In this document: positions 28,362-63,356 of the stretch, in pieces | Layout: each line of letters opens with the position of its first letter | Position numbering within the stretch: the stretch's first letter is position 1 | Source: Mytilus edulis | Lineage: Eukaryota | Length of the DNA stretch: 64,000 bases | NCBI RefSeq assembly: GCF_963676685.1 | Contig: NC_092352.1 | Location: 2,542,001 to 2,606,000, forward strand | Direction: 5' to 3' | Made by a program: the position numbers and the translations under genes | Notes under the pieces: model-generated | Databases searched by the model: none | The model's input: the letters and a program-made list of their open reading frames with translations, nothing else | What the model was told of the DNA's origin: nothing

Positions 28362-28400
28362 CTTCACTCATGAGTCTCGTGTAGACGAAACGCACGTTTT
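28362..28400 (+). ncRNA. Degenerate minimal type I hammerhead ribozyme relic
   Basis: CTCATGA (core G>C)-GTCT-cgtgt-AGAC-GAAA-CGCACG-TT; same family as 45694-45737. Confidence 0.6.
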
Positions 28401-29468
28401 ACATTAAATATTGTAACCCTGTTTTTTTATGAGTGTTAATTACACAATAGGCGAAAACAAATCAGCTGAAGGGTCTTTAAGGGGACACTAGCTACGAGAT
28501 ATATAGTTAACTAGATGGCGTCAGTACTAAAATACACGTGAAACGAAGCTAAATATTATAGGGGCTATGCACTGTAAATAGTTTATTTTAGACTTTTTAT
28601 AATTTGGATAAATGTTTTACATTGTTATAAATCAAATTTGAGAATTTGAGTCAAATTAGTAAACATGAATTTAAATTTAAAAATTTGAAACTTAAAATAA
28701 CATTAATGTTATGTATTGATCCAGTTTTTTTCAAACATTACATATTGTCAAACTAGCGACCTTCAGAAACAATTCATTTATTTTTCACTAGGCACTTTAT
28801 TCAGCACCACCAATTCTTTCATGACAATATGTTGCGCCGTCATTGCACTAGTATGTTAAATCAAAGTGCATCATTAATTCACGTCGGTTTGCAGAAAATG
28901 TCTTTTTTCAGATAGAAAACGATTTTTTGGGTAGACAGATTGAATGCTAATCGATAACACCATGAACAGCATAACGAATTAAAGCAACAATAAAAAAAAT
29001 CCGTCATCAAGAACGCCTCTTCAACGGAGTCCCAAGAACTACAAATACGGGGCTCGTATTTATCAAGTATATTCACATATGTAAATTCCATGTTTTACCA
29101 ATTTCCAATAGCTGAAACTGTATTCCTAAAGTCTGACTTTTGTTTATTAAATTGATTGATTGTGTACTCATCACCAAAATTGATCTCTCTAGGAATTCTA
29201 ACTCTAGTGAGTTTATTTGAATCAAGATTTAGACTCAATGGATCTCTGGATTTGTCCACTATCATGTCATATTGAAAATTTTCAGAACACTGATGATGGT
29301 CAATTCGAACTGTGTATGTATAGGTAGAATATGACATCGTTCCATCTAAATTATATGTTGTTGCTGTACTAGTCCTCTGTTCATAGTGGAAGAACGTAAT
29401 CGTCATTTCAACAGTGGGCTTGACTTCATGAAGTATATTAAGATAATTTAAGCAAGATTGCTTTTGCT

Positions 29469-29640
29469 AAAAGAGGGACGAAAGATACCAAAGGGACAGT
29501 CAAACTCATAAATCTAAAACAAACTGACAACGCCATGGCTAAAAATGAAAAAGACAAACAGAAAAACAATAGTACACATGACACAACATAGAAAACTAAA
29601 GAATAAACAACACGAACCCCACCAAAAACTACGGGTGATG
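29469..29640 (-). mobile_element. Family C insertion inside the TMEM151-like coding sequence
   Basis: Reverse complement of the family C 3' part, between codons ENI and QKQSCLNYL. Confidence 0.85.
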
Positions 29641-30069
29641 TTTTCTAGATATTACATCTCCCATGAATAAATTGACTCAATCTGAGTCCAAATAACACAG
29701 AGAACGATTCCTGTGCTTGAACATGCAACCAGTATTACAGATACATCAGTTTCTTTCTCTTCCGCATTCTTCTTAGCGACAGTATATACTATTACTGGTA
29801 TGGGAATAGGGAGACAAATATAGCATTGTAACGATGTAATTCTAACGTATGATACTTCATCATATAAGTTGTCTTCTTTCGCGAGAGGATCGGTCTTTTC
29901 TGTGACAATGTTGTCTCCTTTCGCGAGAGGATCGGTCTTTTCTGTGACACTGTTGTCTTCTTTCGCGAGAGGATCGGTCTTTTCTGTGACAATTTGTGCA
30001 GTTCTTTCCGCCATGTTATGTTGGTCATTATCAAATACTGTCGTGTCAAATGAGGCACTAGAACTTTCT

Positions 30070-31305
30070 GTCGTGTCATGCTGGTTATGAGTAACCGCTG
30101 CCGTGTTATGCTGGTTATCAGTAATCGCTGCTGTGTTATGCTGGCTATCAGTAATCGCTGTCGTGTTATGTTGGTTATCAGGAATCGCTGCCGTGTCATG
30201 TTGGTTATCAGTAATCGCTGTCGTGTCATGCTGGTTATAAGTAATTGCTGACGTGTTATGCTGGTTGTCAGTAATCGCTGCCGTGTTATGCTGGTTACCA
30301 GTAATCGCTGCCGTGTTATGCTGGTTATCAGTAATCGGTGTCGTTTTATGCTGGTTATCAGTAATCGCTGCTGTGTTATGCTGGCTATCAGTAATCGCTG
30401 CTGTGATATGGTGGTTATCGGGAATCGCTGCCGTGTCATGTTGGTTATCAGTAATCGCTGTCGTGTCATGCTGGTTATAAGTAATTGCTGACGTGTTATG
30501 CTGGTTATCAGGAATCGATGCCGTGTCATGTTGGTTATCAGTAATCGCTGCCGTGTTATACTGATTATCAGTAATCGCTGCTGTGTTATGCTGGTTATCA
30601 GTAATCGCTGTCGTGTTATGCTGGTTATCAGGAATCGCTGCCGTGTCATGTTGGTTATAAGTAATCGCTGTCGTGTTATGCTGGTTGTCAGTAATCGCTG
30701 CCGTGTTATGCTGGTTATCAGTAATCGCTGTCGTTTTATGCTGGTTATCAGTAATCGCTGCCGTGTTATGCTGGTTGTCAGTAATCGCTGCCTTGTCATG
30801 TTGGTTATAAATAATCGCTGTCGTGTTATGCTGGTTTTCAGTAATCGCTGCCGTGTTATGCTGGTTATCAGTAATCGCTGTCGTTTTATGCTGGTTATCA
30901 GTAATCGCTGCCGTGTTATGCTGGTTATCAGGAATCGCTGCCGTGTCATGTTGGTTATAAATAATCGCTGCTGTGTTATGCTGGTTATCAGTAATCGCTG
31001 CCGTGTTATGCCGGTTATCAGTAATCGGTGTCGTTTTATGCTGATTATCAGTAATCGCTGCCGTGTTATGCTGGTTATCAGTAATCGCTGTCGTTTTATG
31101 TTGGTTATCAGTAATCGCTGCCGTGTTATTCTGGTTGTCAGTAATCGCTGCCGTGTTATGCTGGTTATCAGTAATCGCTGCCGTGTTATGCTGGTTATCA
31201 GTAATCGCTGCCGTGTTATGCCGGTTATCAGTAATCGGTGTCGTTTTATGCTGGTTATCAGTAATCACTGTCGTTTTATTCTGGTTGTTAGTGATCGCTG
31301 TCGTA
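30070..31305. repeat. Coding minisatellite, about 41 x 30 bp (TDNQHNTAAI), next to 3 x 39 bp (29870-29990, VTEKTDPLAKEDN)
   Basis: GTAATCGCTGCCGTGTTATGCTGGTTATCA in exact 30-bp register. Confidence 0.97.
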
Positions 31306-32139
31306 GTTGTATTACAGCTTTCCAAGACTATTCTATTTTGAGATGCATTAAATGTATCACGAATGCTCCTTCGTTTTTCATCATTGGTTCCAATTTCAAT
31401 CGAGGTTAGATCATCAGTATTCTGACTGTTTTCTGATCTTCGTATTTCTAATGCTAATGCAATGAAAAAATATTGGATACAAGGAAATACAAGATATTGT
31501 GAAAACATTGTTGCAAAGACAGATATTACATTTGCCGCGTCTCTATACATATTGATTAATAACGATATACATCAAGATATGTGTAATCCAGTTTTTAATT
31601 GCGATTTTTTTTTTTATTTACACCTATGTTTATATCATGTAATAGGAAGAACATGTGGTCTAATGTGTAATCAGTGGTTTCCTAGATGGCAAATATTGTG
31701 AACGTGTTTGATAACACGCAGTACACATCTACTATGTTAGTCTTTTTAAAGAAAACAACGCATTTCTAAACAAATAGACCTATATGGAAATTGCTTGAAA
31801 TGATTCCAATATATTTGGAACGGAAATATATTGTAATATATGGCATAAAACATGTTCTCTCGATTTATTACACTTTTGTAATATACAATTTACAATACAC
31901 ATACCTCAAATACTTTTTGAGATTGAATGAATAAAGGCAACATTATTTTACCGATGTATAAGTAAATCGATTAAGCTAAAACAAATCCGGGTAACAAAAT
32001 AAATCCGAGGGAAACACATCAACTATAAGAGAAAAACAAGACTCTCTTGTGGAGAGTTGTCTCATTGGCATTCATACGACATCTTCTTTTTTTATATTGG
32101 CACAGAACATTATTAGAAAAAAATGTTGGTTATTGTAAC

Positions 32140-32445
32140 TGATAAAAACTGCTAGGACTAATACGGGATAATTCCTCAAGACAAAAACTATATTGAATTG
32201 GGATTAGAAACTCTGAAGAATAGACGAAGTAAACATCAGATTACCCTATTTTATAAAATATTACATGGAATGACACCTGCATACTTATATGAGTTAGTCA
32301 AGTCATACATGTATGTTCCAAGACAAGCATCTTATACTTTGAGAAATGCAATTAAACTTTTCACCAGCCTCTAGTTAGAACTAGATTTTACTTTAATAGT
32401 TTCATTCCTTCCACCGTAAAGCTTTGGAAACATCTTTTTCTGAGT
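32140..32445 (+). mobile_element. Degraded CR1/L2-group LINE ORF2 C-terminal fragment
   Basis: Hand translation across frameshifts gives ELGLETLKNRRSKHQITLFYKILHGMTPAYL...YTLRN...YFNSFIPSTVKLW. Confidence 0.7.
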
Positions 32446-32842
32446 ATACAAAAATCCATGTGTATATTTAGAAGTAGACCGGACAAGTTTTATTGGACTA
32501 TTGTGACTGCCTGAATAACTTGATTTAATGGAAAAAGATAGTATTGCAAAATGTTCCAACATCATATCATTTGTATCATGCTTTATACAAAAATTATTTT
32601 GGGACACTTTATATCTTGCCATTCGATGTGAGCCAAGGATCGTGTCGAAGGACTTACTTTGACTTATAATGTAACTTTTTACAGATAGCGACTTCGACGG
32701 AGAGTTGCCTGATCATTCAATATTTACAAAAAACCACTGTAGTTTCTTTTTATTATGTCGGTTAGAAATGTTAATTTGATCAGTTAAATAATGAAGTGTT
32801 TCCCTTTAACGACATCATATAAATACACGAGAACTTTAAACT

Positions 32843-33925
32843 TTACATTTGTATGCTTTTATTACAAATGACATCTTTTTTAAGTATGAAATTTACTTTT
32901 GTTGTTGACAAATTAAAAGCCAACCGATAAACCCATGTACAACATAAGACATTAAATAAACAGAACCAATCTGCAGACATCCACCAAATCTTTTCCTCTG
33001 ATTCCCATCCACTACAAATACGGGATTCATGACCGGAGACAATCTTCTCATAGGAAAATTGAAATTCTTCATAATTCCCCATCCGAAATACTCTTTGAAT
33101 GAAATCTTCTTTTTGTTTGTTAAACTGCGTTTTCGTAAATTCGTTCCCAAAACTAATTTCAGCAGGAATTCGAACTCTCGTGAGTTTATTTCGATTTATA
33201 TTGAGACTTGTAGGATCTGTTGATTTATCTACCCAAGTGTCATATTTAAAATTTTCAGATGCCTGATGATCAATCACAATAACTTTTTCTTTATAGGTAG
33301 ATGAATATGTATAGGAAGATGCATCTGACCTTCCAGCTGATCTTGTAACAGTACGTTCTTCGTAATGGAAACATACGACAGTCATTTTAATGATAGGTTT
33401 AGATTGACGAAGTTCATTCAGATATTTCACGCATGACTCTTTATTATATATATTTTCTAAGTACTGCATCTCCCATGACAATAGAGATTCTGCTTGTGTC
33501 CATATAATACACAATACTATTCCAGTGCTTAAGCAGGTCATAAGTATAACAGATAGATGCTGGCCTTTTCCCTCTAGATTTGTCCTGTAAATCACAGTAT
33601 AAATCAAAGTAGGTATGTATACGAAAAGACATATATAACATTGGAACGACGTTACTCTGGCGTAGGAAACTTCATAAAAATGTTCCTTTTCTTCTTTTTC
33701 GATTGGCGTTCGTTCTGGTACAGTCGAAGTTTCTATACTATTTGTCTTTGTCCTGTCCCGGATTGTATGTAGTTCATCATACGTTCTTCCTAGTCTTTGA
33801 TCAACCGATGATTTCTTTATGCCGTAGATCATTTTCATTATACAATACTGAATTAAAGGCAACACAACATATTGTGCTGTCAGTGTCGTAAAGACAGAGA
33901 TGACAATTGCAACATCTCGATTCAT
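32843..33925 (-). CDS. TMEM151-family membrane protein, intact single-exon ORF (360 aa from ATG 33925)
   Basis: Three N-terminal hydrophobic segments, then KPIIKMTVVCFHYEERT...ENFKYDTWVDKS...TRVRI...WWMS...WVYRL...KK, matching the TMEM151A/B pattern as recalled. The track start at 33940 is TTG; the paralog supports ATG 33925. Confidence 0.8.
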   Translation of the reverse strand: MNRDVAIVISVFTTLTAQYVVLPLIQYCIMKMIYGIKKSSVDQRLGRTYDELHTIRDRTKTNSIETSTVPERTPIEKEEKEHFYEVSYARVTSFQCYICLFVYIPTLIYTVIYRTNLEGKGQHLSVILMTCLSTGIVLCIIWTQAESLLSWEMQYLENIYNKESCVKYLNELRQSKPIIKMTVVCFHYEERTVTRSAGRSDASSYTYSSTYKEKVIVIDHQASENFKYDTWVDKSTDPTSLNINRNKLTRVRIPAEISFGNEFTKTQFNKQKEDFIQRVFRMGNYEEFQFSYEKIVSGHESRICSGWESEEKIWWMSADWFCLFNVLCCTWVYRLAFNLSTTKVNFILKKDVICNKSIQM

Positions 33926-34153
33926 ATTTGCTTTTGACAAGTTTGAAAGACACGACTCAAGTGAACAAATATCAGCTACATGTACTTAGTCAACGGAAGT
34001 ACATTCATATACATACATTTTTTTTGTATGTGTGTAGTTTATTATATCCTGTTTTTACTAGGTGCAATTCAAGTCTAATCATTTTTTTTTATTTGGATAA
34101 CTTACAGAATTTATAATAATCTGTTTTAGATAAGATTACAGGTAGCTTTTTTG

Positions 34154-34398
34154 TAAATATAGACATATTTCCAACATTTATTTTGCATCTGGAAACTAAA
34201 AGGTAAAAAAAACGCAAAATCTGTGAATATTAAATATTTCCCAAAATAGGGCATGGTTTGTGAAATAGCTGTGTTTACCAATGTTTGTCCAAGGGTCAGA
34301 AATACAGAGAGCATTTCTTATAAATATAGACAAATTTCCAACATTTATTTTGCATCTGGAAACTAATAGGTAAAAAAACGCAAAATCTGTGAATATTG
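34154..34398. repeat. Direct duplication of about 78 bp (34154-34231 and 34321-34398)
   Basis: TAAATATAGACA(T/A)ATTTCC...GCAAAATCTGTGAATATT occurs twice; the second copy abuts the PLE 5' junction. Confidence 0.9.
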
Positions 34399-36110
34399 AA
34401 TATCAATTGGAAGCAGAACTTCAAACTACTAATAGATTCTGTTGAGGGTTATGCAAAAGACTGGACAAAAAGAGAAAAGGTTGAGGTTGACACTCTTTCG
34501 GAGTTGGTAAAATCAGTAAGGTCATTGATTCAGATAAGAGTAAGTAAGCTTAAAGGGTCAATGAGAACCAAAGCTCCTTCCATCTTTAAAGACCCTCAGG
34601 TCATAGAGGAGTTGTCTTGCCTCCATGACAAATATGTTGTCGTTCCAGCTGACAAAGCCTCAAACAATATTGTTTTTGTTTGCAAGAAACACTACATTGT
34701 CTGCCTGATTAAGGAACTCGGGATAAATAACACACTTGGAAATCCTACATATACACTAAGTACGCTTACTAAGCAGGAGATCCTGGAAAACCACAAATCG
34801 GTTCTAATCTCCTTTGCTGTTCATCCAAAGGATGAAGACCAAGATCTTTCATCCTTATATTGGATTCCTAAGCTTCACAAGAATCTTTATAAGGAAAGGT
34901 ATATTGCAGGTTCTTCCAAGTGTTCCACTAAACCCCTTTAAAGTGCTTACTGTCATACTCACTGCAGTCAAAGAAGGTTTCAGAAATATTCCGAAACGGC
35001 ATATTCAAGAAGTGGTGTTAATCAGATGTGAATACTGAAAAATTCAAAAGAGTTATTAGGGAATTTACTATTTCAATCATTAAAACATTGTACCAACATT
35101 AAAACCTTTGATTTTTCAACTCTTTATACCACTACTCCACAAACTAAACTTAAAGCTCGACTGAAAGAACTCGTCAGCTTATGTTTCTTTAACAAAAAAG
35201 GCACTAGACGTTTTAAATATCTAGTTGTGGGCAGATATTCAGCTTACTTTGTGAAAAATCATACAGAGTCAAAGAAAACATACACAGAAGAGGATATCAT
35301 TGCCATGCTGGACTTTTTAATTGACAACATATTTGTTGAATTTGAAGGTTTGGTCTTCCAACAGACTATTGGAATCCCAATGGGTACCAATTGAGCTCCT
35401 CTACTTGCAGATTTGTTTTTGTATTCCTATGAAGCAGAATGTATCCAAGGGCTTGTACAGAAAGGAGAAAAAAAATTAGCCCAGTCTTTTAATTTCACCT
35501 TTCGGTATATTGATGATGTACTGTCTCTTAATAATAATAGATTCAGTTATCACTTACATTTAATATATCCAAGTGAACTTGAAATTAAAGATAAATCTGC
35601 TTCATATTTAGACCTTTTCCTCGAAATGACTACTGATGGTAGGTTGAATACCAAAATTTATGACAAACGCGATGATTTTAATTTTCCTATAGTTACCTTT
35701 CCATTTCTGTGTAGCAACATCCCAGCGGCACCAGCATATGGAGTATATGTGTCTCATTTGATACGTTACTCTAGAGCTAGCTCAAAGTACGTTGATTTGT
35801 TGAACGAGGAATACTGCTTTCTCAAAAGTTGCTAAGACAGGGCTATGAATCAATCAAATTAGTCTATATATCTTGTAATGATGTATAATATTCATCCAAG
35901 AAATTTTACTGTCGCCATCATGAGCTGATTGGCCATTATGACATAGATCATATCTGATATTCTTCCTCAGTCACAAAAACCTTCCATCATTACCGAACTG
36001 AACAAAGAAAGAACACGACGGGTACCGTATATACGGTGCAGGAAATGCTTACCCTTCCGGAGCACCTGATTTCACTCCCGGGTTTTAGTGGAGTTCGCGT
36101 TGTTTCTTAT
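34399..36110 (+). pseudogene. Decayed 5'-truncated Penelope-like (Naiad-type) reverse transcriptase with structured 3' end
   Basis: Motifs VVVPADKASNN, LYWIPKLHK, TFDFSTLYT, GIPMGTN*APLLADL, FRYIDDVL, YDKRDDFNF and YGVYVSHLIRY, with frameshifts and stops. No C-terminal GIY-YIG. Confidence 0.88.
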
Positions 36111-36511
36111 TTATTATTTATAACTGTTGATGTAAATGTCCTTTGTTTTTTTTAGTCTTTGTTTACTACTTGGTTTTGATTGTTATTGTCTTGCAACCTC
36201 CCGTATAGTCACCCAATCTATAACTTTGCCGATTGGGACATGTTGCCTTAGTGTGGGTTAGCATAACGATTTAGTTCAGGTCTTGCTCCTGGATTCTTGC
36301 GAATGCATCATGTTATTTTTTTTCTACGTTGTTTGGTTTGTTTCTTTTTCGATTTGAACATTGGTAAACTACTATCGTTTTTATTACTTCATAACTTAAA
36401 AAATCAACGTTTTCATGTGTGTTATATTTGTAAAATAAAGACGAAAGATACTAACGGGATAGTCAAACTCATAAGTCGAAAACAAACTGACAATAACATG
36501 GCAAAAAACGA

Positions 36512-37900
36512 AAAGACAAACAACAGTACATACAACACAGCAGGCAAGACAAACAACAGTACATACAACACAGCAAGCAAGACAAACAACAGTACATACA
36601 ACACAGCAGACAAGACAAACAACAGTACATACAACACAGCAGACAAGACAAACAACAGTACATACAACACAGCAGGCAATACAAACAACAGTACATACAA
36701 CACAGCAGACAAGACAAACAACAGTACATACAACACAGCAGACAAGACAAACAACAGTACATACAACACAGCAGACAAGACAAACAACAGTACATACAAC
36801 ACAGCAGGCAAGACAGACATCAGTACATACAACACAGTAGGCAAGACAGACAACAGTACATACAACACAGCAGGAAAGACAGACAACAGTACATAAAACA
36901 CAGCAGGCAAGACAGCCAACAGTACATACAACACAGCAGGCAAGACAAACAACAGTACATACAACACAGCAGGTAAGACAGACAACAGTGCATACAACAC
37001 AGCAGGCAATACAGACAACAGTACATACAACACAGCAGGCAAGACAGACATCAGTACATACAACACAGTAGGCAAGACAGACAACAGTACATACAGCACA
37101 GCAGGCAAGACAAACAACAGTACATACAACACAGCAGGTAAGACAGACAACAGTACATACAACACAGCAGGCAATACAGACAACAGTACATACAACACAG
37201 CAGGCAAGACAAACAACAGTACATACAACACAGCAGACAAGACAGACAACAGTACATACAACACAGCAGGCAATACAAACAACAGTACATACAACACAGC
37301 AGACAAGACAGACATCAGTACATACAACACAGCAGACAAGACAAACAACAGTACATACAACACAGCAGACAAGACAGACAACAGTACATACAACACAGCA
37401 GGCAATACAAACAACAGTACATACAACACAGCAGGCAAGACAGACATCAGTACATACAACACAGTAGGCAAGACAGACAACAGTACATACAACACAGCAG
37501 GCAAGACAAACAACAGTACATACAACACAGCAGGTAAGACAAACAACAGTACATACAACACAGCAGACAAGACAGACAACAGTACATACAACACAGCAGG
37601 CAATACAAACAACAGTACATACAACACAGCAGGCAAGACAGACATCAGTACATACAACACAGTAGGCAAGACAGACAACAGTACATACAACACAGAAGGC
37701 AAGACAAACAACAGTACATACAACACAGCAGGTAAGACAGACAACAGTACATACAACACAGCAGGCAATACAGACAACAGTACATACAACACAGCAGGCA
37801 AGACAGACATCAGTACATACAACACAGTAGGCAAGACAGAAAACAGTACATACAACACAGCAGGCAAGACAAACAACAGTACATACAACACAGCAGTCAA
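36512..37900. repeat. Minisatellite, about 42 x 33 bp
   Basis: Unit AAGACA(A/G)ACAACAGTACATACAACACAGCAGGC, growing out of a family C fragment at 36438-36530. Confidence 0.97.
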
Positions 37901-40116
37901 GACATTACAGCATGTGCATTCTTCTTAATGTATAGTTATTTTACTTTTTGTTACAAAACTGGAATGCATTAGTGCCTTGAAGGCAATAGAAAGAACACCA
38001 CGAGTGACGTAACGTCCGTCTGGCGTACAAAATTTGAATCCTGGTATCTATATGAGTTTATGTATATGTGTTAGGCTTACGGAGAACGTTAATTCTATTC
38101 TGTGACTAGACAACATGCAATAATGTTAAAATAGAATGTCCGTTTTCCTACAGGAATATGACAGTTGTTTTTCATTTATTCATTCATTCATCGTTTGATC
38201 TGGCCGAGTTTTTGATTTTGTTAGGTTTAAAAACAAATGTTGACTTTCCACTTTTGGAATTAACATTGGAGTTTGGTAATTTTGTTTATACTTTTTTATA
38301 AAGCCAGTCGATTGTTTTTGCTCTTCAACTTAAACCTGAAAATAGCATTTTGATACATACCGGCCTTTGTAAGTCTTGTATGATATTTAATTTTAGTTTC
38401 TTGTGTATAATTCGGAGTTTAGTATGACATCCATTATCACTGTACTAGTATACATATTTTTAAGGGGTCAGCTGAAGGACGCCTACAGGTGCGGGAGTTT
38501 CTCGCTACATCGAAGACCCATTGGTGGCCTTCGGCTGTTGTCTGCTCTATGGTCGGGTTGTTGTCGCTTTGACACATTCCCCATTTCCTATCTCAATTTC
38601 AAATAATAAAACACAGGACAAAACATAGAAAACTAAAGCTGAGCAACACGAACCCCACCAAAATCTGGGGAGATCTCATGTGCTCCAAAAGGGTAAGCAG
38701 ATCCTGCTCAACATGTGGCACCCATCGTGTCATTAAAGGACAGGATGCATTCTAATTAACAGTGTATGCCTTTATATGTTCTAATTGAGTGATTCATTTC
38801 AATATTTTTTTCATTTATTTTTTTTCTATTTTTTTATGTGTTTGATATTTCTGTTTGTTGAGTTTAACGGCATATATTATATACTGGTAGCCAAATTCAT
38901 AAAATATCAGTAATTTCACTGTCCAAAGAATAAACAAGATTGCAACCATTGAAAACAACATAATGAAAAACATGCCGTTTATGTTAACTCTTATATTTGT
39001 TTTCAACGTTGTTCTGGTAAAAAGAGGCGGAAGATACACATGGGAGATTCGAATCCCATAAATCGATGAGAAACTTGCAGTCATGACATCAAATAGAAGA
39101 CGCCAAACAGATGAACATGCTTACAGAACACTACATAAAATGTAAAGACTGGCCAACACGAACTCACTAAGAATAAGGGGTGAGTTCATGCGCTCCATAA
39201 AGATAAAAACGCTCTACTAGTGCCACCCGTCATGTGTGTTTACAAATCGGTAATAAGTCTCAAAAGGTAAATAACACAATTAAAGAAATCAAGATGAGAT
39301 TATTGTAACAATAGAACATAGTAATGCTCGTATGAGTATGCGTATGCGTCCGTAAAACTTTCGAAGGATTATTTGAACTTTATAACCCATTGCTTAATAG
39401 CTTCCTTGTAGGCATCAACCCTCTATCAAGGGAACCATAATTGGAATACAAAATATACTTGATGTTCATGATACTCACCATTATAAGCATGACATATACA
39501 TTTTTTGAAATAAATAGATCATTAGTATACATGTATTCCTTTTTTATACTGTTAGTAAGCACGTATGCAGTTAAATGTAATACATTTTCAACACATCAAT
39601 CTACCAATAGAATATTTGAAAGAGTTACAGTTTCATGTCTATTTATTGTAGTTTATTACAGTTGAATTGAAAATGATACGTGCCTATTTATTGAAGAAGA
39701 ACGAAAAAGAAGAGCCATTGTGCCACCAAACATTAAGATGGTGTTAATAACTTTGAAAGAAAAGACGTTTTGTGTGTATATCTACTTTCACAAAACATTA
39801 AGGAAAGGAAAAAATATGAAGAAAAAAATAAAATTTTGTAGTTTCGTTTAAAACTATTTGTTAAATTGAGAAGGAAATTGGGAACGTGTGAAAGGAACAA
39901 CAGCCCGATCACAGAGCAGACAACAGTCCAATTTGTCTTCAATGCAGGGAGAAATGCAACCGGAGGCATGCTTCAGCTGGCCCCTAAACAAACATGTATA
40001 TTTGTTCCGTGTATGTTTTCCTAGAAAGGATACAAACAAGATCATGAGCAGTACAGACACAATCACTGTGTTAGTACATGTGTTTTACATCTCTACTAAC
40101 TAACTAACTTACATTC

Positions 40117-43477: not shown

Positions 43478-45693
43478 TGTTTAACTACAGAAAATAAAGA
43501 CAATAATATTGAAATGTAAAGACTACAAGAGGGAAAAATAGAATTTATGATTGTGGATCACGATACAAAGGATAATTAAGAAAGGGCCATAATATTACAT
43601 CTCTACCACAAGACGGATGATAGAACTGATTAGACACAGAGACAACACGACTTCAAATATAACTCACCTGTAGCGCTCACTGTCAGCAACCCTTTAATCT
43701 TCTACTTCAAGTCAATCAACATACAGGTGTTATCTACTTCACCGGAAGTACTTGGCGAGTGTTAACGTCTGCCTTAGAAGAGGATGCTACGAGATCACAA
43801 GATGACATTACTCAAGAATACGGACCTTTTATGTTTCCATTTTTAAAGAACAAGGAATTTCCAGTTAAGAAATATAGATATCATTGTAAAGCTCTTTGAA
43901 AGATATTGTGTTTTAATTTACTGTAAATCGCACACTTAATCTAATAAACTGGTAACAAAGCTGACTGATGGCATCTTAAAAGTCAATGTGTCTGGCTTTT
44001 TACCAACTGAACGCTTCATAACGTTCCAATAGTTCCCCAAGTATCATTACATTTGTACGACGAGTAAAAAGCTTTCTCTGATGTGTTACCTGCAATACGT
44101 TGGGTAATTAATCCAGCACCTGCTGTGCTCGTTTTTGATCAAAACTGGCACGGCTTACAATAACTCAGAAATCTTATATCGTCTTTTATCATTTCATTTT
44201 CTTCTTAGTTTGAAGCAATCTAAATTAAATGTGCATTGGTATTTACATTGTGAAGTTGAAACATGAAGAAATTACTTCTGTGTTTCTGATTAAATAGAAT
44301 ATTGCGTTTCTTATCTAAGTATTGCTTTGACTGACATTTGATGTTCATCTTCTGATTAAAATCATACAAAGTTCTTCTGTAAAAAGAACAAAAGTCATAC
44401 TTTAATTCGAAACATTAACAAAATGTCGAGTTTGATTAACAATCAAATATTTGGCACTTTCAGCGTCGTAACCGATTTTCTGTATATGACCAATTTTAGA
44501 CAGTAAGCTTTAATTATTAATCGTATCTGTGTACATTGGTTTGTTTGGAAATATATCAGACAGTTATTTCACAGTTAACACACCTTTTAATGAAATTTTA
44601 CTCCCCTATGACGATTTTCTCACTGTGCCCGTCATTTTACATTAAATCCTTTAAAATATTTATGTAGGCCATCTTTAGTTATAGAAAAATTCATGGAGAC
44701 TATTAAAAAAACTCCAATACCTGTCAATACCGTTGTTTCCTGTGTGCCAGTCTTACACATGTTCATCGGATGAAGTTTTCTTTTTCGAATTGTTACATAT
44801 TTTGTCATACCGGGGATTGTCATTGAATTACTATTATTTAGTATGTCTTTTTAAATTATCTCATTTTTTTAAGGTCATTCGGTAACCAAATGCAATTGTT
44901 CACATGTACTCTTCAATAGCTATTTATTTCATTGGTATTCATACCATATCTCTTTACTTTTATATTTATTTAGAAAATAATATTGTTTTACAAGTTATGG
45001 AAGGAATTTAATTGTCAATTTCTTTTTCTAATTTTACATGGAATTTTGTTTTTTCTTTCACGAATCATGCTGTTGCTATCAATTCGAACTGTTACGGTAG
45101 TGTTACATTTGATCGTAACATATATTCTCACTTTTCATTTATAAATTCGAGAATACCTTTACAGCATCGAAAAAACATACTGTGTTTTCTATGAAGTATT
45201 CATATTTATCATGCAACTTTTGAGGATTGAAACTATTAACATTATTTCATGCTAAGATCGGTTTAATGTTCTGCGAAAAGTATTTTGTGTTTGTAGTTGT
45301 TATGATCGTAGGTTTGTTAACAAAATATGCGAGAATAAGAGTCATACTTTACCTATTTAAATGCAATCTAAAATTGATTACTCTCACATATGATCTTTTA
45401 ATAGCATCACTATCTATCGTTTATATAGGTTTAAGATAAATCTAAAGATTACCGCTTATATTTACACATAATGAAGCTTTTTACTTCATTTGTCTTAGCC
45501 TTTATGTGAAGTTTCAGTATGATTCCTTAATATATTAATATATAAGGTTACTTTCTATTTTTAGGATGACTTTTGTCGACTCCATGTTACATGTACATTG
45601 TTTAGATGAACTGATTTGTAGGAAGATTTTTCTAATATCATATCTCTTTTTTATATCTATAATCTCATCATAGATACTAGGAACAAATTGGGA

Positions 45694-45737
45694 ACGCCAG
45701 AAGCGCATTTCGTCTACAAAAGACTCATCAGTGACGT
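45694..45737 (-). ncRNA. Minimal type I hammerhead ribozyme, catalytic core intact
   Basis: Minus strand ACGTCA-CTGATGA-GTCT-tttgt-AGAC-GAAA-TGCGCT-TC^TGGCGT: 6-bp stem I, 4-bp stem II, palindromic GCGC loop III, one U.U mismatch in stem III. Confidence 0.8.
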
Positions 45738-46350
45738 GCAAATAAAATTAAGAATGAAAAAGTAAAGAAAGTATACGAAATAGAGGATTTGAATTTTAGA
45801 TTAAGTACATACATGTTTATAAGTAAAAAATTTCAAAGGCCAGCTGTATGTCTTGTGATTTTCAATTCTACCATGATCTCATGCTACCAAATTTCATGAG
45901 GCTCATATTGTAGTTCCTTGGGAAAATCATTTGAAATTGGCATGAGACGAACCCACAGATAATGATGTTTGTAGTGTACCCCTCCTTTGGGTCGGAAGTT
46001 TACCTTTTTTTATTCCATAGACTAAAACAGTCTTTTTTGTGTTAAATGCCATGGTTATTTATCTTTTACAACATTACTGAGATTTTGCTTCAATTTGAAA
46101 CTAGCTATCTTATATAGGTAGTAAGTTGTATTAATTGTAGCTCGGTCATCTTTAAAATATTTATTTAACATCAAATGTACCATCTTATCAACATCTATAA
46201 ATTTGGTCAACGGTGTTATCTGTTTTTACCGAATAGAAAATCGGAATCGATCGCAGCAAGTTTGACCATGATAACTTTCTAACATGATCATGTTAAATAT
46301 TGCTGAATATAATTGAAGAAAAATACATATACTTGATTAATTATTTATAA

Positions 46351-53568: not shown

Positions 53569-55880
53569 ATTCCTCTAATTTAAAAATAAAATTGAGATGG
53601 TATCACCAATCAAACGAGAGAACCAATGGCGGCCTTATATACCGACAAAAGAAATACTCGAATAACGAACATGACAGACATCAACAAACGACAACCTTAC
53701 GCTTTTCCATGCAAAGAAAGACAACTTACAACTAAAACTGTTTATGATCATATAATATATGAACAGTAGTTCACTATTTATAAAACAGGTGTTTTGATGG
53801 GATCAAAAATAAAGTGCAAGTCAGTGGCAGATCCAGGGGGGGCCGGGTTTTGGAACCCCCTTTTTTAGACGATAAATGCATTTGAATGGGAGCATGTAGT
53901 TGGAACCACCGTTTACTCTGGGTTGGGTATTATTTTCAGTAAAACAAAACACGTGCACATCAAACAACCTTTTTAACATTACGATAAAGACGAAGTAGAA
54001 ACATTTTTGTTTATTTTTGTCATTGAATTTCGCCTTAAAATCATATATATATATATTGGTCAGGAATAAAATATGTTATAAGGTCCGTACAAGAGAACTG
54101 ATTTCAAATAATGCATCCATTCATCAAGTATCCCATTAATAATGAATGAATATTGAACTAGCATTTGGAATGTAGGTATCAGACATTTTATAAGTTCTAA
54201 AGTACATACAATGTTTACGTAGAGTTATATCGCATTAAAGGAATGTTTTCTAACGTCTACCCTGTAATGACTGTGGGAGTTTGTTTACACCAGAGAAATA
54301 AAAATGCATGATACTTTTAATGTAAACATTATCTATACATCTATATGTCCATTATCCTGCTTTGTTGAATATAATACCTCTAGAAATGACCATTTATATT
54401 CTCTTTAAATCATAATTGAATGCAACATTAGGAAGTACAATTAGATATAAGTCACTAAGGTAAGATTTACACTTTATTAAGATTCCTCTAAAAAAAAAAA
54501 CATTTAATGTTAATGTTGAAATCATACAAATATTAATATTTTATATCATTCTGAGCACGGATAAAGTACATTGAGTCATACAGGAATCTTTAGGAGTATG
54601 CATCATTATAAACGAAGAAAATGTAAAACATTTTTTCTTGTATCAACTAATATTGGAATAAAAGCACAGAAAACACCAATCACTGAAGAGAAATACTATA
54701 CTATGTTATAGTTAAAATGGCAAAACATATATTATTGTCACAGGTAGTATAGATCACTAGAGACACTTTCCCCTCGTCTGGTTCGGTGTTTTATAGATTG
54801 TTTAGGTGAACAGAAACTGTTACATATTCCCTCACCTGTCCCGTTCTGTCACAGGATGTACACATCATTTTTTTTCCCATTTTCGCACTTTGACACATTT
54901 CCCATTTCCATTCTCTATGTTTTGTCATAGGAAAAATATTTCCCTCATTTGTATTATCCTGTCACAGATCTGAATACTTGTATATATGTCCCTCATCTGT
55001 CCCGCTTTGTATTATCAAGTCCCGATTTTTCAGAAGTCGTATAGTTTTACAAAGACTAATCATTCGGACAAAACATTAGTTACTCTAGGATTTACTAAAT
55101 AAATGCATCATAAAAACGCAGTTTGTTCATGCATTTCACAAAAAAATCATTCAATATAAAAAAAAAATAAGGAGTTATGGCATAATTGCCAATGAGACAA
55201 CTATCCATCAAATTTTAAATTGTGAGCTGTTATAGGCAAACATATGACCTTCATCAATGAGAAAGAGTTGTACAGTTTAGTCGGCTTTAAAGACTCCTAC
55301 ATTAAAAAGATGTGAAATTATTCAAACTGAGAAATCTAACAGCTTAATGTAAATCAAAAGTTTACGAAATATAAATTTGACAGATATGAACTAAGTTGAA
55401 ATGATAACATCCTGACTTGGAACAGGCAATAAAAGAATGAAGCAGGGTTACATGTGGTTGTTAGAGCCCAATCTTCATTTGACAAAAAATGTGAAACACA
55501 GTTGAACTTTATTTTGAAAGATCGCTACGAGACACAAATACTACAAACATCAAAACGTTATACAACAAAGCACTGAAATGAGTGTTCTAACAATAGACCA
55601 CTTTCGAGTGTATCCGTCACCGGAAAAAAAACTCTTCAATTAGGCGCGCCTTTGTGACGTCATTTACCAGAAAGAGGGGATCGCCTGTATCCCTGCACTA
55701 TCAACGTTCGTCAAGCGTCTTAGTGATCGTCATTGTTCAGGATAAACTAGAAATAATTTCGTAAGTACTTAAGCACAATTCCCTAATGACAGCAGTGCTG
55801 ATTGTCAAGTATGAGAATTTAGTCTGCCGATCAAATCGTGCAATATAGTATTATAATATTGACTCAAAATTGACTTGATT

Positions 55881-56358
55881 AAAATCTGACTTCATCACAT
55901 GTATCGGTGGTAAAAGACAAACGTATGGAAAATCTGACTTGATCACATGTATTGGTGGTAAAAGACAAACGTATGGAAAATCTGACTTCATCACATGTAT
56001 TGATGGTAAAAGACAAACGTATGGAAAATCTGACTTGATCACATGTATTGGTGGTAAAAGACAAACGTATGGAAATCTGACTTCATCACATGTATTGGTG
56101 GTAAAAGACAAACGTATGGAAAATCTGACTTCATCACATGTATTGGTGGTAAAAGACAAACGTATGGAAATCTGACTTCCTCACATTTATTGGTGGTAAA
56201 AGACAAACGTATGAAAATCTGACTTCATCACATGTATTGGTGGTAAAAGACAAACGTATGGAAATCTGACTTCCTCACATGTATTGGTGGTAAAAGACAA
56301 ACGTATGGAAAATCTGACTTCCTCACATGTATTGGTGGTAAAAGACAAACGTATGGAA
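55881..56358. repeat. Tandem repeat, about 10 x 47-48 bp
   Basis: Unit AAATCTGACTTCATCACATGTATTGGTGGTAAAAGACAAACGTATGGA; a single unit at 50509-50557. Confidence 0.96.
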
Positions 56359-56521
56359 AACATCTAGAAAAAGGAGAGATAGACATAAAGTGCCGATCTA
56401 CATTTTATGATTGGAAATAATACGTTAAATAAGAATAAAGATATTTTACATTTTGAGAACCAATGAACAAGTAATGTATCCAATGTTCCTCTGGGTATTT
56501 ATCAGATAAGAAAACTAAAGA

Positions 56522-56594
<73 letters not shown>

Positions 56595-57381
56595 GTGGTT
56601 AACGTCACTTTCAGCAATAATATGCTATTTTGTGGCGGTCATTTTGTTTGGAAAGAGGAAGGTGGAGCGCCCTGAAAAGAACCATTGAATTCAGTAGGAA
56701 ACTGACAATTCTAGTCGATCCCACCTACAAAGTGCGGGAATCGAACTCAAAACTTCAACGTTGATAGGCTAATAATACTGTGAATCGACCGAGGTCATTA
56801 AAAAGTTAGAAAAAAAGATTTGAACAAAGTCCTTAACATATGACATTTAACTTTCAACTTGTTACTGTATTGTATAATCGAGCTGTGATTCGCTTTATAT
56901 CACCTTATCTGTTTAATGATAAAGCTCAAAACCATCGTGCATCTAATTTGTTTGTACGATGCAGCCGAGAAATGCATAATCATATTCTTTAACATATACA
57001 GTCACTTCCCCTTTCGACAGACACATCTTTTCATTAAGATTTGATATTTTACCATGCAGTTTTCCCGTTTTGTTCGACACAACTGATTTTGTCTTATATA
57101 TATTTCAAAGTGGCCGATTCACTATCAAAATTCCTCTAATTTAAAAATAAAATTGAGATGGTATCACCAATCAAACGAGAGAACCAATGGCGGCCTGATA
57201 TACCGACAAAAGAAATACTCGAATAACGAACATGACGGACATCAACAAACGACAACCTTTCGCTTTTCCATGCAAAGAAAGACAACTTACAACTACAACT
57301 GTTTATGATCATATAATATATGAACAGTAGTTCACTATTTATAAAACAGGTGTTTTGATGTTTAAAAAAAAAAGTGCAAGT

Positions 57382-57512
57382 CAGTGGCAGAACCAGGGGA
57401 GGGGGTCCGGGTTTTGGAACCCCCTTTTTTTAGACGATCAATGCATTTGAATGGGAGCATGTAGTTGGGAACCCCATCCCCCCCCTTTTTAAAATGACTG
57501 GATCCGCCCCTG
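57382..57512. mobile_element. MITE, 131 bp, 5-bp TSD CAAGT
   Basis: Termini CAGTGGCAGAACCAG / CTGGATCCGCCCCTG; CAAGT at 57377-57381 and 57513-57517. The duplicate at 53822 has lost its right end. Confidence 0.8.
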
Positions 57513-60500
57513 CAAGTTTACGGGATTTATTTAGTATTTTCAGTTAAACAAAACACGTGCACATCAAACAACCTATTTTTGACATTACGATAAAGACGAA
57601 GTAGAAACATTTTTTGTTTATTTTTGTCATTAAGTTTCGCCTTAAAATCATATATTGTTCAGGAAAAAAAATATGTTATAAGGTCCGTACAAGAGAACTG
57701 ATTTCAAATAATGCAACAAATCACCAAGTATCCCACAAATAATGAATGAATATTGAACTAGCATTTGGAATGTAGGTATCAGACATTTTATAAGTTCTAA
57801 AGTACATACAATGTTTACGTAGAGTTATATCTAAGGAATGTTTTCTAACGTTTACGCTGTAATGACTGTTTCGTCGGAGTTTGTTTACACCAGAGAAATA
57901 AAAATGCATGATACTTTTAATGTAAACATTATCTATATATCTATATGTCCATTATTTTGCTTTGTTGAATATAATACCTCTAGAAATTACCCTTTATGTT
58001 CTCTCTAAAACATAATTGAATGCAACATTAGGAAGTACAATTAGATATAAGTCACTAAGGTAAGATTTACACTTTATTAAGATTCCTCTAAAAAAAAATA
58101 CATTTAATGTTAATGTTGAAATCATACAAATATTAATATTTTATATCATTCTGAGCACGGATACAGAATATTGAGTCATACAGGAATCTTTAGGATTATT
58201 CATTATTATAAACGAAGAAAATGTAAAACATTTTTTTCTAATATCAACTAATATTGGAATAAAAGCACAGAAAACACCAATCACTGAAGAGAAATACTAT
58301 ACTATGTTACTATATTATTGTCACAGGTAGTATAGATCACTAGAGACATTTTCCCCTCGTCTGGTTCGGTGTTTTATAGATTGTTTAGGTGAACAGAAAC
58401 TGTTACATATTCCCTCACCTGTCCCGTTCTGTCACAGGATGTACACATCATTTTTTTTCCCATTTTCCCACTTTGACACATTTCCCATTTCCATTCTCTA
58501 TGTGTTTTCATAGGAAAAATATTTCCCTCATTTGTATTATCCTGTCACAGATCTGAATACTTGTATATATGTCCCTCATCTGTTCCGCTTTGTATTATCA
58601 AGTCCCGATTTTTCAGAAGTCGTATAGTTTTACAAAGACTAATCATTCGGACAAAACATTAGTTACTCTAGGATTTACTAAATAAATGCATCATAAAAAC
58701 GCAATTTGTTCATGCATTTCATAAAAAAAAATCATTCAATATAAAAAAAAAAATAAGGAGTTATGGCATAATTGCCAATGAGACAACTATCCATCAAATT
58801 TTAAATTGTAAGCTGTTATAGGCAAACGTATGACCTTCATCAATGAGAAAGAGTTGTACAGTTTAGTCGGCTTTAAAGACTCCTACATTAAAAAGATGTG
58901 AAATTATTCAAACTGAGAAATCTAACAGCTTAAAGTAAAACAAAAGTTTACGAAATATAAATTTGACAGATATGAACTAAGTTGAAACGATAACATCCTG
59001 ACTTGGAACAGGCAATAAAAGAATGAAGCAGGGTTACATGTGGTTGTTAGAGCCCAATCTTCATTTGACAAAAAATGTGAAACACAGTTGAACTTTATTT
59101 TGAAAGATCGCTACGAGACACAAACACTACAAACATCAAAACGTTATACAACAAAGCACTGAAATGGGTGTTCTCACAATAGACCACTTTCGAGTGTATC
59201 CGTCACCGGAAAAAAAACTCTTCAATTAGGCGCGCCTTTGTGACGTCATTTACCAGAAAGAGGGGATCGCCTGTATCCCTGTACTATCAACGTTCGTCAA
59301 GCGTCTTAGTGGTCGTCATTGTTCAGGATAAACTAGAAATAATTTTTATTTCGTAAGTACTTAAGCACAATTCCCTAATGACAGCAGTGCTGATTGTCAA
59401 GTATGAGAATTTAGTCTGCCGAACAAATCGTGCAATATAGTATTATAATTTTTCAACCACTCGCTCAACAATGGAATGGAAGTGAGACGGCCCCTAAACG
59501 CACGAATGATGTTCCACGGTGGGTATGGTTGTCCTGCGAGAGAACGTTCTGTGCTGGTGATTCGGTCCTGACGGGTGCTGGTGATCAATGAAAACATGTA
59601 AACAAAGACAAAAATGATGATTTTTGACGTTTTCACTCATAAAAAATGGAAGAAAACAGTTGAGATTTTTCAATTTTGTTTCTTATGGGTTCATATGTAA
59701 ACCATTAAAAAGTTGACCCTCTAAACTGTTTCAGTAAGCGTAACACAAAAGTGCTCATTTTCAGAAAATCTAGAACTGAAAAAATAAAACAAAAATGTTC
59801 ATAGAGTCCGCTTTCCATACCGCAATCCACACGGCAAAACTATTTTGTGAAAAAACATTGCAATTTATTAAAATTTAGCATTTTCTCAATTTATTCCTGT
59901 CCTGATACTGTGCTGGTGGGTCCTGTCATTGTGCTGGTGGGTCCTGATACGGTGCGTGCTGGTGATTTTGGATAAGAAGTTGGTCATATTTGTAACAAAT
60001 GTTACAAAATCAATAAAATTGGGCAGATAATTGTTGTCAATAGGATCTATGACTCCTATTTTAGCTCTTGTGCATCCATTTGGCTGTTTAATATGTGTTT
60101 TCAAATGATCGTAACTTGTATTACATGATAACATAAAAGGGCAACATCTTTCATCCAATATCAGATAACAATATATAGTATCTAAAATAAGAATAGTTTT
60201 ATTAAGATATTAAATGACCCTTACATTGATGCTTCAACAATGATCAAAGCCCATGCCGCATAGACATGTTTGTTAGCGCTCCGCATACCCCTCCCGACTT
60301 CCACCCAACCAACCCTCCTCATTTCCTCCTTCATTGTTACAGTGGTGTACCAACACAACAATTTATCACATAAAATAATAACATAAAGACACACATTATT
60401 GAACAACGAATGCTCGCAGGTACTGAAATATATTTATGTACGTGGCGAAAGAATTTTATCGTATGATAATTCTATTAATATAACAATAGAATTGTAACAG

Positions 60501-60631
60501 GTTTTATGAACCCGAGTGTATTTAAATACGGTGGACTCGAATTGAAATTATCGATAAGGGCGTTGACCATTCGCATGTACACACGTAGTTTTTGTTAGTT
60601 AAACCTGTATTGCCGTAGACTTACGTTGACA

Positions 60632-61381
60632 ATGTCCGATATGGAGGAGGAAATCTTGGATTTACCGAGTGAACAAGGTACGTCTACTAGAAATCCGCAT
60701 GAAATGTCTAATGCAGACTTATTTTCACTTCTCAAGACGTATATGGATACTAGACTGTCGGGTATTGAAACATCTTTCACAGATACTACGCATACTTTGG
60801 AGAAAAAGGTTAAAAAGGCTGAAAATTCGTTCAAATTCAAGGGTCATCAGGTCCAGTACGAGCTGAACGTAGATTTACAGGATTTGGTACAGAGGGCGTT
60901 GGATTATCTAGGGAGAAACAAGTCGGATAAAGCGGTAACTATTCTGAATGAGGCTCTTAACACGCTAAAGAAAAGAAACAAGCTCATAAGAATTGCTGAC
61001 AAGTCGGAGGGAGGGTGGAAGACCGTACAAGAATATTTGTCCGATGATTTAGCCAGCGACTCCGAGGATGAAAAGAAGATAAGGGCAGCTGATACCCGGG
61101 CGGTGAAAAAGTTAAAGTCCGTTAAATCTGCAGACAAGAAGCAGAACGTTCGAAAAAGACCAGCCGAAGCATCCGGTTCTACATCGCAGACAGCGCATAA
61201 CGCAATTCCAGTTTCTGTCAGCATGCCGCCCTTTCGCGGGAGCAGACCTGGTTACGGAAACCAGGTCAAAAGGTCCAGGGAAGGAGATATGTGTTTCAGG
61301 TGTGGATTATTTGGACATTGGGCATCCGATTGCAAAAAAGACACCAAGACTGGATTTGGAGCTCCCAGAGGAAATTCATAA
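60632..61381 (+). CDS. Gag-like ORF1 with CCHC zinc knuckle
   Basis: KRNKLIRIADKSEGGWKTVQEYLSDDLASDSEDEKKI block and CFRCGLFGHWASDC. First ATG is at 60632. Confidence 0.88.
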   Translation: MSDMEEEILDLPSEQGTSTRNPHEMSNADLFSLLKTYMDTRLSGIETSFTDTTHTLEKKVKKAENSFKFKGHQVQYELNVDLQDLVQRALDYLGRNKSDKAVTILNEALNTLKKRNKLIRIADKSEGGWKTVQEYLSDDLASDSEDEKKIRAADTRAVKKLKSVKSADKKQNVRKRPAEASGSTSQTAHNAIPVSVSMPPFRGSRPGYGNQVKRSREGDMCFRCGLFGHWASDCKKDTKTGFGAPRGNS

Positions 61382-63356
61382 GGATTTCAGCGCTCATACG
61401 GACACTTTACAGGTACAAGATGTTTATGAAACTTATTTTGAATATGAAAAGGGTCGTTCAGATATTTTTGTTAAAGACAGGCTTAAAAATTCTGTAAACT
61501 TTTGGAAAAGTATTAACGCTTCTAGTTTTATTGTTGATATTATTGAAAATGGTTACAAAATACCTTTGTTAAAAGAGCCCGAAAATATGTTTTCTAAAAA
61601 TAATAAATCTGCGTTAGAGCATTCAGATTTTGTTTCAAGTGCAATTAAAGAGCTTGTGTCGGGCGGTTTAGTAAAACGTGTATCAATTATGCCACACGTT
61701 GTGAACCCTTTAACTGTTTCAGTTAACGGTAAAGGTAAACACAGATTGATTTTAGATTTAAGACATGTAAATAAACAAGTGATTGTAAACAAAGTCAAAT
61801 TCGAAGATTGGAAAACTTTAGCACAATATGTTACTTTGAATTGTTATGGATATGTCTTTGATTTGAAGTCGGGATATCACCACTTAAACATTTTTGAACA
61901 ACATCAAAAGTATTTAGGGTTTTCGTGGGAAGGAGAATTTTATGTTTTTACTGTGTTGCCATTTGGTTTAAGTTCAAGCGGGTATATATTTACTAAAACT
62001 GTGAGACAATTGGTAAAGCACTGGCGTAAATCTAGCATAAAGGTAGCTGTTTATTTAGACGACGGTTTTGGGGTCGAAGTTAGTTATGAACTATGTGAAA
62101 AGCACGCTCGAAGAATCAAAGCAGACTTGATTGCTTCTGGTTTTGTGCCAAACAAAGACAAGTGTGTATGGTTACCTGCACAGCACGTTGAGTGGTTAGG
62201 TTTTTCATGGAATTTAATTTCTTGCAAATTGCAAATTCCTCAAAGAAAAATAGATGATATATTGAATTTGGTAGCTTTTATACTAAATTCTAGTTACAGG
62301 GTAAAGGTACGACAGTTGGCCAAAATATGTGGTAAGTTAATTGCTTTAACACCAGCAGTAGGTAATGTTACCCAGATAATGACGAGAAACATTTTTTCAG
62401 TCATTAATATAAGAGACTATTGGGATCAATATGTAAACATCGGCAAGTATCCAGGTTGTATCAATGAGCTTATTTTCTGGAGAGATAATTTGCCTTTATT
62501 AAAGGCGGTTGATCTGGTAAAGAACATTTCAAATTTTCATGTTTTCACAGATGCTAGCGATACGGGTGCTGCTGGTTTCATACAAAATTCAACAAACATT
62601 TTGCACAAAATGTGGTTAGAAACTGAGCGAGGTAGGAGTTCTACTTGGCGAGAAGTAAAAGCAATTCAGTTATGTGTCAGTGCCTTTTCAAAACTCTTAC
62701 AAAATAGTATCGTGACTTTTCACACAGATAACAAGAATGCTGTTAGCATCATAAATAAAGGTAGCAAAGTACAAGAATTACAACAGTTGTCCTTAGAAAT
62801 TTATAGGTGTTGTTTACTTGAAAACATTACATTACACATTATATGGTTACCCAGAAAAGAGAACGAGCAGGCTGATTTTTTAAGTCGGATTATAGATATT
62901 GATGACTGGGGTATTTCTCCAGAGTACTTTCAGTTTTTAGACGACCTCTGGGGTCCTCATACCTTTGATAGGTTTGCTAATATGGACAATAACAAAGTAG
63001 ATAAATTTAGTTCGTTGTACTGGAACCCTGGTTCCTCGGCAGTAGACGCTTTCTCGTGCCACTGGGCACAAGAAAACAATCTATTAGTACCACCTGTGTC
63101 TTTAGTTTGTAAGTGCATAAACCACTTGGTTAAATGCAAAGCAGAAGGAACACTGATAGTTCCGAGTTGGCCGTCGTCTCCTTACTGGCCATTAATTTTT
63201 GATGAAAACACAGAACACAGATCTTACGTGTTAGATGTGCTCGAATTTAACGAGGTAGACAGAATTTTAGTTTCTGGAAACAATTTAAATTCTATTTTCG
63301 CGAACGGAAAATTCAAAGGTAGAATTTTAGCTGTTCGATTGAAAGCTTCTGATTGA
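61302..63356 (+). CDS. Reverse transcriptase - RNase H - DAM-like methyltransferase ORF
   Basis: RT: RLILDLR, FDLKSGYHH, VLPFGL, YLDDG. RNase H: FTDAS, SSTWRE, TDN, ENEQADFLSR. MT-like: DRFA...AVDAF...W...VPP...VPSWPSSPYWP. The true start is uncertain. Confidence 0.92.
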   Translation: MDYLDIGHPIAKKTPRLDLELPEEIHKDFSAHTDTLQVQDVYETYFEYEKGRSDIFVKDRLKNSVNFWKSINASSFIVDIIENGYKIPLLKEPENMFSKNNKSALEHSDFVSSAIKELVSGGLVKRVSIMPHVVNPLTVSVNGKGKHRLILDLRHVNKQVIVNKVKFEDWKTLAQYVTLNCYGYVFDLKSGYHHLNIFEQHQKYLGFSWEGEFYVFTVLPFGLSSSGYIFTKTVRQLVKHWRKSSIKVAVYLDDGFGVEVSYELCEKHARRIKADLIASGFVPNKDKCVWLPAQHVEWLGFSWNLISCKLQIPQRKIDDILNLVAFILNSSYRVKVRQLAKICGKLIALTPAVGNVTQIMTRNIFSVINIRDYWDQYVNIGKYPGCINELIFWRDNLPLLKAVDLVKNISNFHVFTDASDTGAAGFIQNSTNILHKMWLETERGRSSTWREVKAIQLCVSAFSKLLQNSIVTFHTDNKNAVSIINKGSKVQELQQLSLEIYRCCLLENITLHIIWLPRKENEQADFLSRIIDIDDWGISPEYFQFLDDLWGPHTFDRFANMDNNKVDKFSSLYWNPGSSAVDAFSCHWAQENNLLVPPVSLVCKCINHLVKCKAEGTLIVPSWPSSPYWPLIFDENTEHRSYVLDVLEFNEVDRILVSGNNLNSIFANGKFKGRILAVRLKASD

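Follow-up and report, generated by a model that had tools for sequence, protein, structure and literature searches.

The locus and its surroundings

The window, by which we mean the whole stretch of 64,000 nucleotides of Mytilus edulis DNA analysed here, carries on its minus strand a type I hammerhead motif (45694..45737), which lies within a 5′-truncated fragment of a retrozyme (45659..45773). The window holds four further fragments of this retrozyme family, all decayed and more broken than this copy: two with a broken core (7304-7486 on the minus strand and 28315-28397 on the plus strand), one consisting of the 3′ part only (38006-38065, plus strand) and one derived from outside the hammerhead (1741-1801, minus strand). 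The plus strand also contains a frameshifted Naiad-like reverse transcriptase (RT) relic (34393-35835), with 68% DNA identity to the full-length element L102 discussed below, and a second, related RT C-terminal fragment (8681-9187).

Other features of the window include frames of the TMEM151 family at 32843-33985 and 29095-29466 (within 29095-33985, minus strand), which score above the Pfam cut-off, and a further frame at 29652-31571, which by eye resembles the start of the first TMEM151 frame and has a long tandem expansion of a 10-aa (30-bp) unit. Two overlapping frames on the plus strand (60599-63356), of 260 and 746 aa, are gag-like with a zinc knuckle and RT-RNase H, respectively, and look like part of a DIRS-type retrotransposon. 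Repeated DNA is present as a direct duplication with a spacing of about 3.58 kb and 96-98% identity (53569-59043), a 47-48 bp tandem array (55833-56360) and a tandem array of 33-bp repeats in which both strands have open frames (36381-37900).

A type I hammerhead with an intact core

Read along the minus strand, the motif is composed of the 5′ arm of helix I (45737-45732), the core sequence CUGAUGA (45725..45731), a 4-bp helix II with a 5-nt loop (45724-45712), the core sequence GAAA (45708..45711), a U-GCGC-U segment forming loop and helix III (45702..45707), UC (45701-45700) and the 3′ arm of helix I (45699-45694), which completes a helix of 6 bp including two G.U pairs. Helix III is reduced to A15.1-U16.1, and the adjoining positions 15.2 (45707) and 16.2 (45702) form a U.U mismatch with the GCGC palindrome between them. 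Cleavage is predicted 3′ of C17 (45699..45700), that is, between 45700 and 45699, in the established hammerhead numbering. All 13 of the 13 invariant core letters are intact, as are helices I and II, and helix I keeps its 6 pairs, with an A-U in place of a G.U of the family. The initial annotation of this DNA had listed the CUGAUGA, GAAA and UC elements, the paired stems I and II and the palindromic GCGC loop, and had put the predicted minus-strand cleavage between 45700 and 45699, all of which agrees with this reading of the motif.

The motif is real. Scanning both strands with a descriptor gave a single match in the window, at this site; when the window was simulated 200 times with an order-3 Markov model, 0 simulations had a strict match, and there was a mean of 0.04 relaxed matches per window. 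A covariance-model search, which had been suggested as a check, returned no hammerhead family match at E<=1 when run against Rfam. By thermodynamic folding, the 44-mer is no more stable than its shuffles (z -0.23); none of four intact family copies reaches the active form in ViennaRNA either, so folding energy does not discriminate here. The canonical metazoan type is described as having a 6-bp helix I, a 4-bp helix II, a helix III of 1-2 bp and a palindromic loop (Cervera and de la Pena 2014, PMC4209133). The window copy has the canonical core (CUGANGA/GAAA/UH), a helix I of about 6 bp and a helix II of 4 bp; in helix III, for which 1-2 bp and a palindromic loop of 2-4 nt are expected, the family has 2 bp and GCGC, and the window copy has 1 bp closing 6 nt with the U.U. 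The region 3′ of helix I differs from the family unit by a 4-nt deletion and substitutions, and mussel hammerhead families are reported, in the main text of PMC7229834, to do without most of the conserved loop 1-loop 2 contact bases.

The retrozyme family and its fixed 3′ end

A search of the 1.37-Gb genome with a 101-nt query gave 1,378 candidates, and among the 40 of these that were scored, the closest blast relatives of the window copy are 81-89% identical to it. The relatives read GAAA-C-GCGC-G-UC, with a 2-bp helix III (C-G at 15.2-16.2) and a GCGC tetraloop. Genome-wide, a 21-nt probe for the 3′ half of the core has 17,702 exact copies; a second subfamily, with a 355-bp unit that is 82% identical to the first, has 6,928. 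Intact family members, on whose existence the initial annotation had staked its reading, are present as 2,258 exact intact 42-mers, and its assignment to a type I hammerhead of a retrozyme family is right. In all eight pairs measured the tandem unit is 355-367 bp long, and it is non-coding, the longest stop-free frame in one unit (at L030) being 48 aa. The family has a type I hammerhead in each tandem unit, with unit lengths inside the 150-450 bp range of non-LTR retrozymes, and fits a non-LTR retrozyme of the kind already described in mussels, with which it is matched by description only. A hammerhead-like variant with a CUGAAGA core and a different helix II (L109:192-242 and L013 near 1629) perhaps represents a third related family.

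The shape of insertions was followed in the first 40 exact-core loci on one contig (C1), which correspond to 41 listed hits, two of them sharing a locus; three of the 40 are duplicates of one insertion. Thirty of the 40 are shorter than one unit and 33 have one recognisable hammerhead. Their 5′ extents range from 44 to over 2,000 nt, and 35 of them have their 3′ end at +45 to +52 past a cut site (2 of these one unit later). The same fixed 3′ end emerged from a reference-free all-against-all check, and 23 of 25 loci of the second subfamily, some from shared arrays, end at +39 to +48. In being lone, clipped and ended at the fixed 3′ position, the window copy is typical of its family.

A fixed 3′ end together with 5′ truncation of varying extent typically marks target-primed reverse transcription. 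Target-site duplications (TSDs) are unsupported: in the 32 clear-ended loci of the 40, the longest word shared between the junctions is 4-7 nt, against 4-8 nt in controls, and it is 5 nt at the window locus. Since the window copy crosses the cut site, its template was likely circular or uncut. The probable route to such insertions begins with tandem master copies that would be transcribed, self-cleave as monomers and be ligated into circles, as reported in the literature on mussel retrozymes. The reverse transcriptase would be borrowed from another element, probably a Naiad PLE; it would begin about 45-52 nt downstream of the cut and copy back across the cut site, a step that needs a circular or uncut template. 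At the window locus, copying would have stopped after about 120 nt, and after insertion the copy would have acquired a CpG-type C>T change at 15.2 and a G>T change at 16.2.

A lone, truncated and decaying copy

The window fragment corresponds to positions -73 to +45 about the cut site of the 364-bp unit, to which it is 79% identical, and its 5′ edge may reach about 45790. Its 3′ end (45655..45660) falls at the fixed end of the family, and the hairpin that follows in a full unit is absent here. The copy does not have the make-up of an active retrozyme: it keeps one hammerhead and about 115 bp of the 364-bp unit, and the descriptor scan found no partner hammerhead on either strand of the window.

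The pair at 15.2-16.2 reads C-G in 2,258 of the exact family 42-mers, U.G in 77, C.U in 25 and U.U in a single one, the window copy, where 0.85 double mutants are expected under independence. With the 21-nt probe, 13 U.U copies are found alongside the 17,702 C-G copies, and about 7 are predicted from young-copy ratios. Both subfamilies are represented among the other 12 U.U copies, which agree with the window copy at only 66-89 of 124 nt, so the U.U copies do not make up a subfamily. Because the mismatch recurs near the chance rate, in scattered copies without the flanks of the window copy, it represents recurrent decay in the family, and in the window copy it is a pair of private, derived mutations.

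A U.U next to A15.1-U16.1 would be expected to lower the cleavage rate, and our literature search found no paper on a mismatch at 15.2/16.2 of helix III. That a U.U in stem III may weaken the ribozyme had been pointed out in the initial annotation; the mismatch is present at 45707/45702, and the predicted self-duplex of the helix III segment shrinks from 8 bp (-13.3 kcal/mol) in the family to 4 bp (-7.5 kcal/mol) in the window copy. On these modelled energies, dimer rescue looks weaker in the window copy than in the family, and any dimer partner would have to come in trans because there is no neighbouring hammerhead. Against a dead ribozyme, amphibian hammerheads with a 1-bp helix III still cleave, slowly as monomers and well as dimers. 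A mussel retrozyme monomer cleaves at about 0.1/min, as given in the main text of PMC7229834. Dimer cleavage as the working mode, which the initial annotation had favoured, is thus at odds with the published cleavage of the mussel monomer as well as with the shortened dimer helix and the lone position of the motif. Its further suggestion of a circular RNA fails at this locus for a structural reason, namely that with one hammerhead, and only about a third of a unit, no monomer can be freed for ligation. The window copy is likely a poor cutter, as far as predictions from its pairing go.

Differences are unevenly spread along the fragment. The window copy differs from the family at 2 of 42 nt in the core and at 18-20 of 77 nt in the flanks, a contrast with a binomial P of 0.007 once variation within the family is taken into account. 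By comparison, when second-family copies are set aside, six further old copies met incidentally, each with at least 15 flank differences, have 6-11 core differences. This contrast, the 13 preserved core letters and the intact helices I and II are in line with the view that selection has retained the copy as a weak ribozyme acting in cis within a host transcript, where it might trim an intron or a 3′ end. Assembled contigs from other sequencing runs have a bearing on the age of the insertion. In contigs labelled with a second species, the 5′ part of the element is joined to the upstream flank (X5 45745-45998, X6 45769-46008); this is slight evidence for an old, shared insertion and counts in favour of selection. 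Contigs from two runs of one study have the same U.U joined to the downstream flank, and may come from the sequenced source material. One further run (X1, RNA by guess) matched the shared family core and not the adjoining flanks. An empty-site allele was looked for in 6 of 7 listed runs, all but X2, and no joint across the insertion was found, a result that the fragmented contigs make uninformative.

Against selection, both core changes strike the pair beside A15.1-U16.1 and the U.U recurs in the family about as often as chance predicts. Among the frames of at least 65 aa at 39-53 kb, of which only one reaches 120 aa, no recognisable host gene was seen by eye, and in a family of more than 17,000 copies chance alone leaves some old intact cores. 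The initial annotation singled out this copy for its intact core, and that choice could explain the core-flank contrast. We therefore regard maintenance by selection as improbable and favour, with a probability of roughly 85%, the reading that the window copy is a canonical-type hammerhead in a lone, truncated retrozyme fragment, a neutral insertion that was dead on arrival, is predicted to cleave weakly at best and would give no circle.

Is the hammerhead that of a PLE?

The initial annotation had called the motif 'minimal' and had allowed for an origin in a PLE. As defined in PMC4209133, minimal hammerheads (min-HHRs) lack helix III and loop 3 and are located in pLTRs beside an RT ORF. Had the window copy come from such a pseudo-LTR and cleaved as a dimer, its palindromic GCGC loop and its single helix III pair would be accounted for, and so would its truncation, as PLE insertions are 5′-truncated too. 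However, 6 nt separate A15.1 from U16.1 in the window copy, and the family pairs two of these within a 2-bp helix III and carries the hammerhead in a non-coding tandem unit; the term 'minimal' is therefore not appropriate here. There is no pLTR flanking an RT ORF at the locus, which leaves the PLE assignment without its context; no PLE ORF adjoins, and the nearest Naiad-like RT relic (34393-35835) lies ~10 kb away on the other strand. At three loci a PLE ORF does sit right beside a hammerhead, but these arose by segmental duplication: the fragment lies within an ORF that has decayed, and a second copy downstream is lacking. We consider a PLE origin very improbable. Equally hard to sustain is the idea of an older U.U subfamily that had flanks of its own and survives in the window copy alone. 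In its favour, the flanks of the copy differ by 26% from those of the closest among 33 young copies and the core is preserved, a pattern also seen between the two living subfamilies. Against it, the 21-mer at its 5′ junction is unique in the genome, its best relatives among the 40 scored candidates are as close as stated above, and its flanks are not common to the other 12 U.U copies.

Naiad elements as candidate helpers

Eight long-ORF relatives of the RT relic in the window were analysed (L102-L109). One of them, the full-length element L102 (contig C3), encodes 1,007 aa with an N-terminal GIY-YIG domain (at the Pfam cut-off), a C-terminal RT (RVT_1 weak, E 0.012) and, by eye, DKA and CxC motifs, and has a 394-bp pLTR. 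Its domain order, DKA/CxC motifs and pLTR, together with the lack of a canonical hammerhead, fit the Naiad elements as characterised in the main text of PMC8557442. Elsewhere in the genome, a candidate autonomous PLE with this hammerhead in its pLTR (L062/L063/L066) was rejected, as the lead proved to be a segmental duplication. Three loci on contig C1 (L072, L073, L074) are segmental duplicates, 94-98% identical, with a retrozyme fragment in a decayed PLE with C-terminal GIY-YIG.

Two regions of the Naiads resemble the retrozyme unit. The first is the junction of pLTR end and 5′ region (L102:2808-2900), which aligns in register with the fixed end of the retrozyme and the hairpin that follows it (70% over 93 nt); local scores reach 26 and 31, where shuffling gives at most 18 and 16 for the whole element. 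The alignment is seen in L102, L103 and L107, the other 5 copies being 5′-truncated relative to L102. In a 13-row alignment of the shared hairpin, whose structure was drawn from the same sequences and in which two Naiad rows count as one event, 96% of cells are paired and 6 of 18 pairs are changed on both sides; five of these six double-sided changes separate Naiads from retrozymes, and slid controls give 1-2 cells against 11. The second region is a ~290-nt segment in the 3′ UTR of all eight copies, which matches unit positions +105 to +41 at 69-71% identity (scores of 74 and 105 against shuffle maxima of 22 and 20; E 1e-39 to 1e-43). In L102 (6526-7055), and likewise in L103-L109, helices I and II of the segment are kept and a partial duplicate precedes it, and the catalytic core has been altered in three different ways among the copies. 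Because it ends at the fixed end, the segment may have entered this Naiad family through an old insertion of a retrozyme; alternatively, it may share a common origin with the retrozyme unit.

Taken with the window copy, which ends just short of the hairpin as the Naiad model predicts for an insertion, these likenesses lead us to propose, at what we would call even odds, that hammerhead-free Naiads have a non-autonomous partner in the mussel retrozyme. The shared hairpin would set where the Naiad reverse transcriptase starts on the circle, and with it the 3′ end of every insertion, ~48 nt past the cut, and the unit might be a deletion derivative of a Naiad ancestor, joining its 5′ hairpin to its 3′ UTR, with the Naiads keeping the scaffold with a silenced core.

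Comparison with known systems

The closest counterparts by description are the retrozymes of Mytilus galloprovincialis (Cervera and de la Pena 2020, PMC7229834), which share with the family a type I hammerhead, two related subfamilies, non-coding units of 350-390 bp, thousands of copies and low GC, and for which abundant circular RNAs are reported. The window copy differs from them in being single, in covering about a third of a unit at 79% identity and in its U.U helix III. That paper proposes mobilization of retrozymes by PLEs; its main text does not describe 5′ truncation, and the parts of it consulted here give no fixed 3′ end or named helper family. The min-HHRs of PLEs (PMC4209133) share the type I topology with the window copy, whose weak helix III likewise suggests dimer rescue, and differ from the family, whose helix III of 2 bp lies in a tandem unit without coding capacity.

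In Xenopus, homology of retrozymes to PLE termini (pLTRs) has been shown, along with scattered solo copies, so that a preprint has already connected retrozymes with PLEs in general, using frogs (Li, Clavereau, Pollet, bioRxiv 10.64898/2026.07.22.740005). The mussel family resembles these elements in its homology to PLE termini; in the frog, 8 of 9 tested dimers remained uncleaved. The main text of the preprint includes no molluscs, mentions Naiad only in coral and untied to retrozymes, and describes neither a fixed end nor a shared hairpin, and a literature search, which covered most papers by their listing and a few by parts of their text, found no Naiad-retrozyme link.

The locus itself is ordinary, one among many thousand clipped copies. 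At the level of the family, the pattern bears on the question of the retrozyme helper, left open in the main text of PMC7761336, according to which animal retrozymes have no conserved motif pointing to a helper retrotransposon. Naiads (PMC8557442, main text) share with the retrozyme the junction hairpin, the 3′ UTR segment, 5′ truncation and partial tandems; unlike it, they are autonomous and without a canonical hammerhead, the core of their 3′ UTR homologue being altered. The fixed 3′ end, the covarying hairpin and this core-altered Naiad hammerhead together point to one candidate for the enzyme that copies the mussel retrozyme and another for its priming signal.
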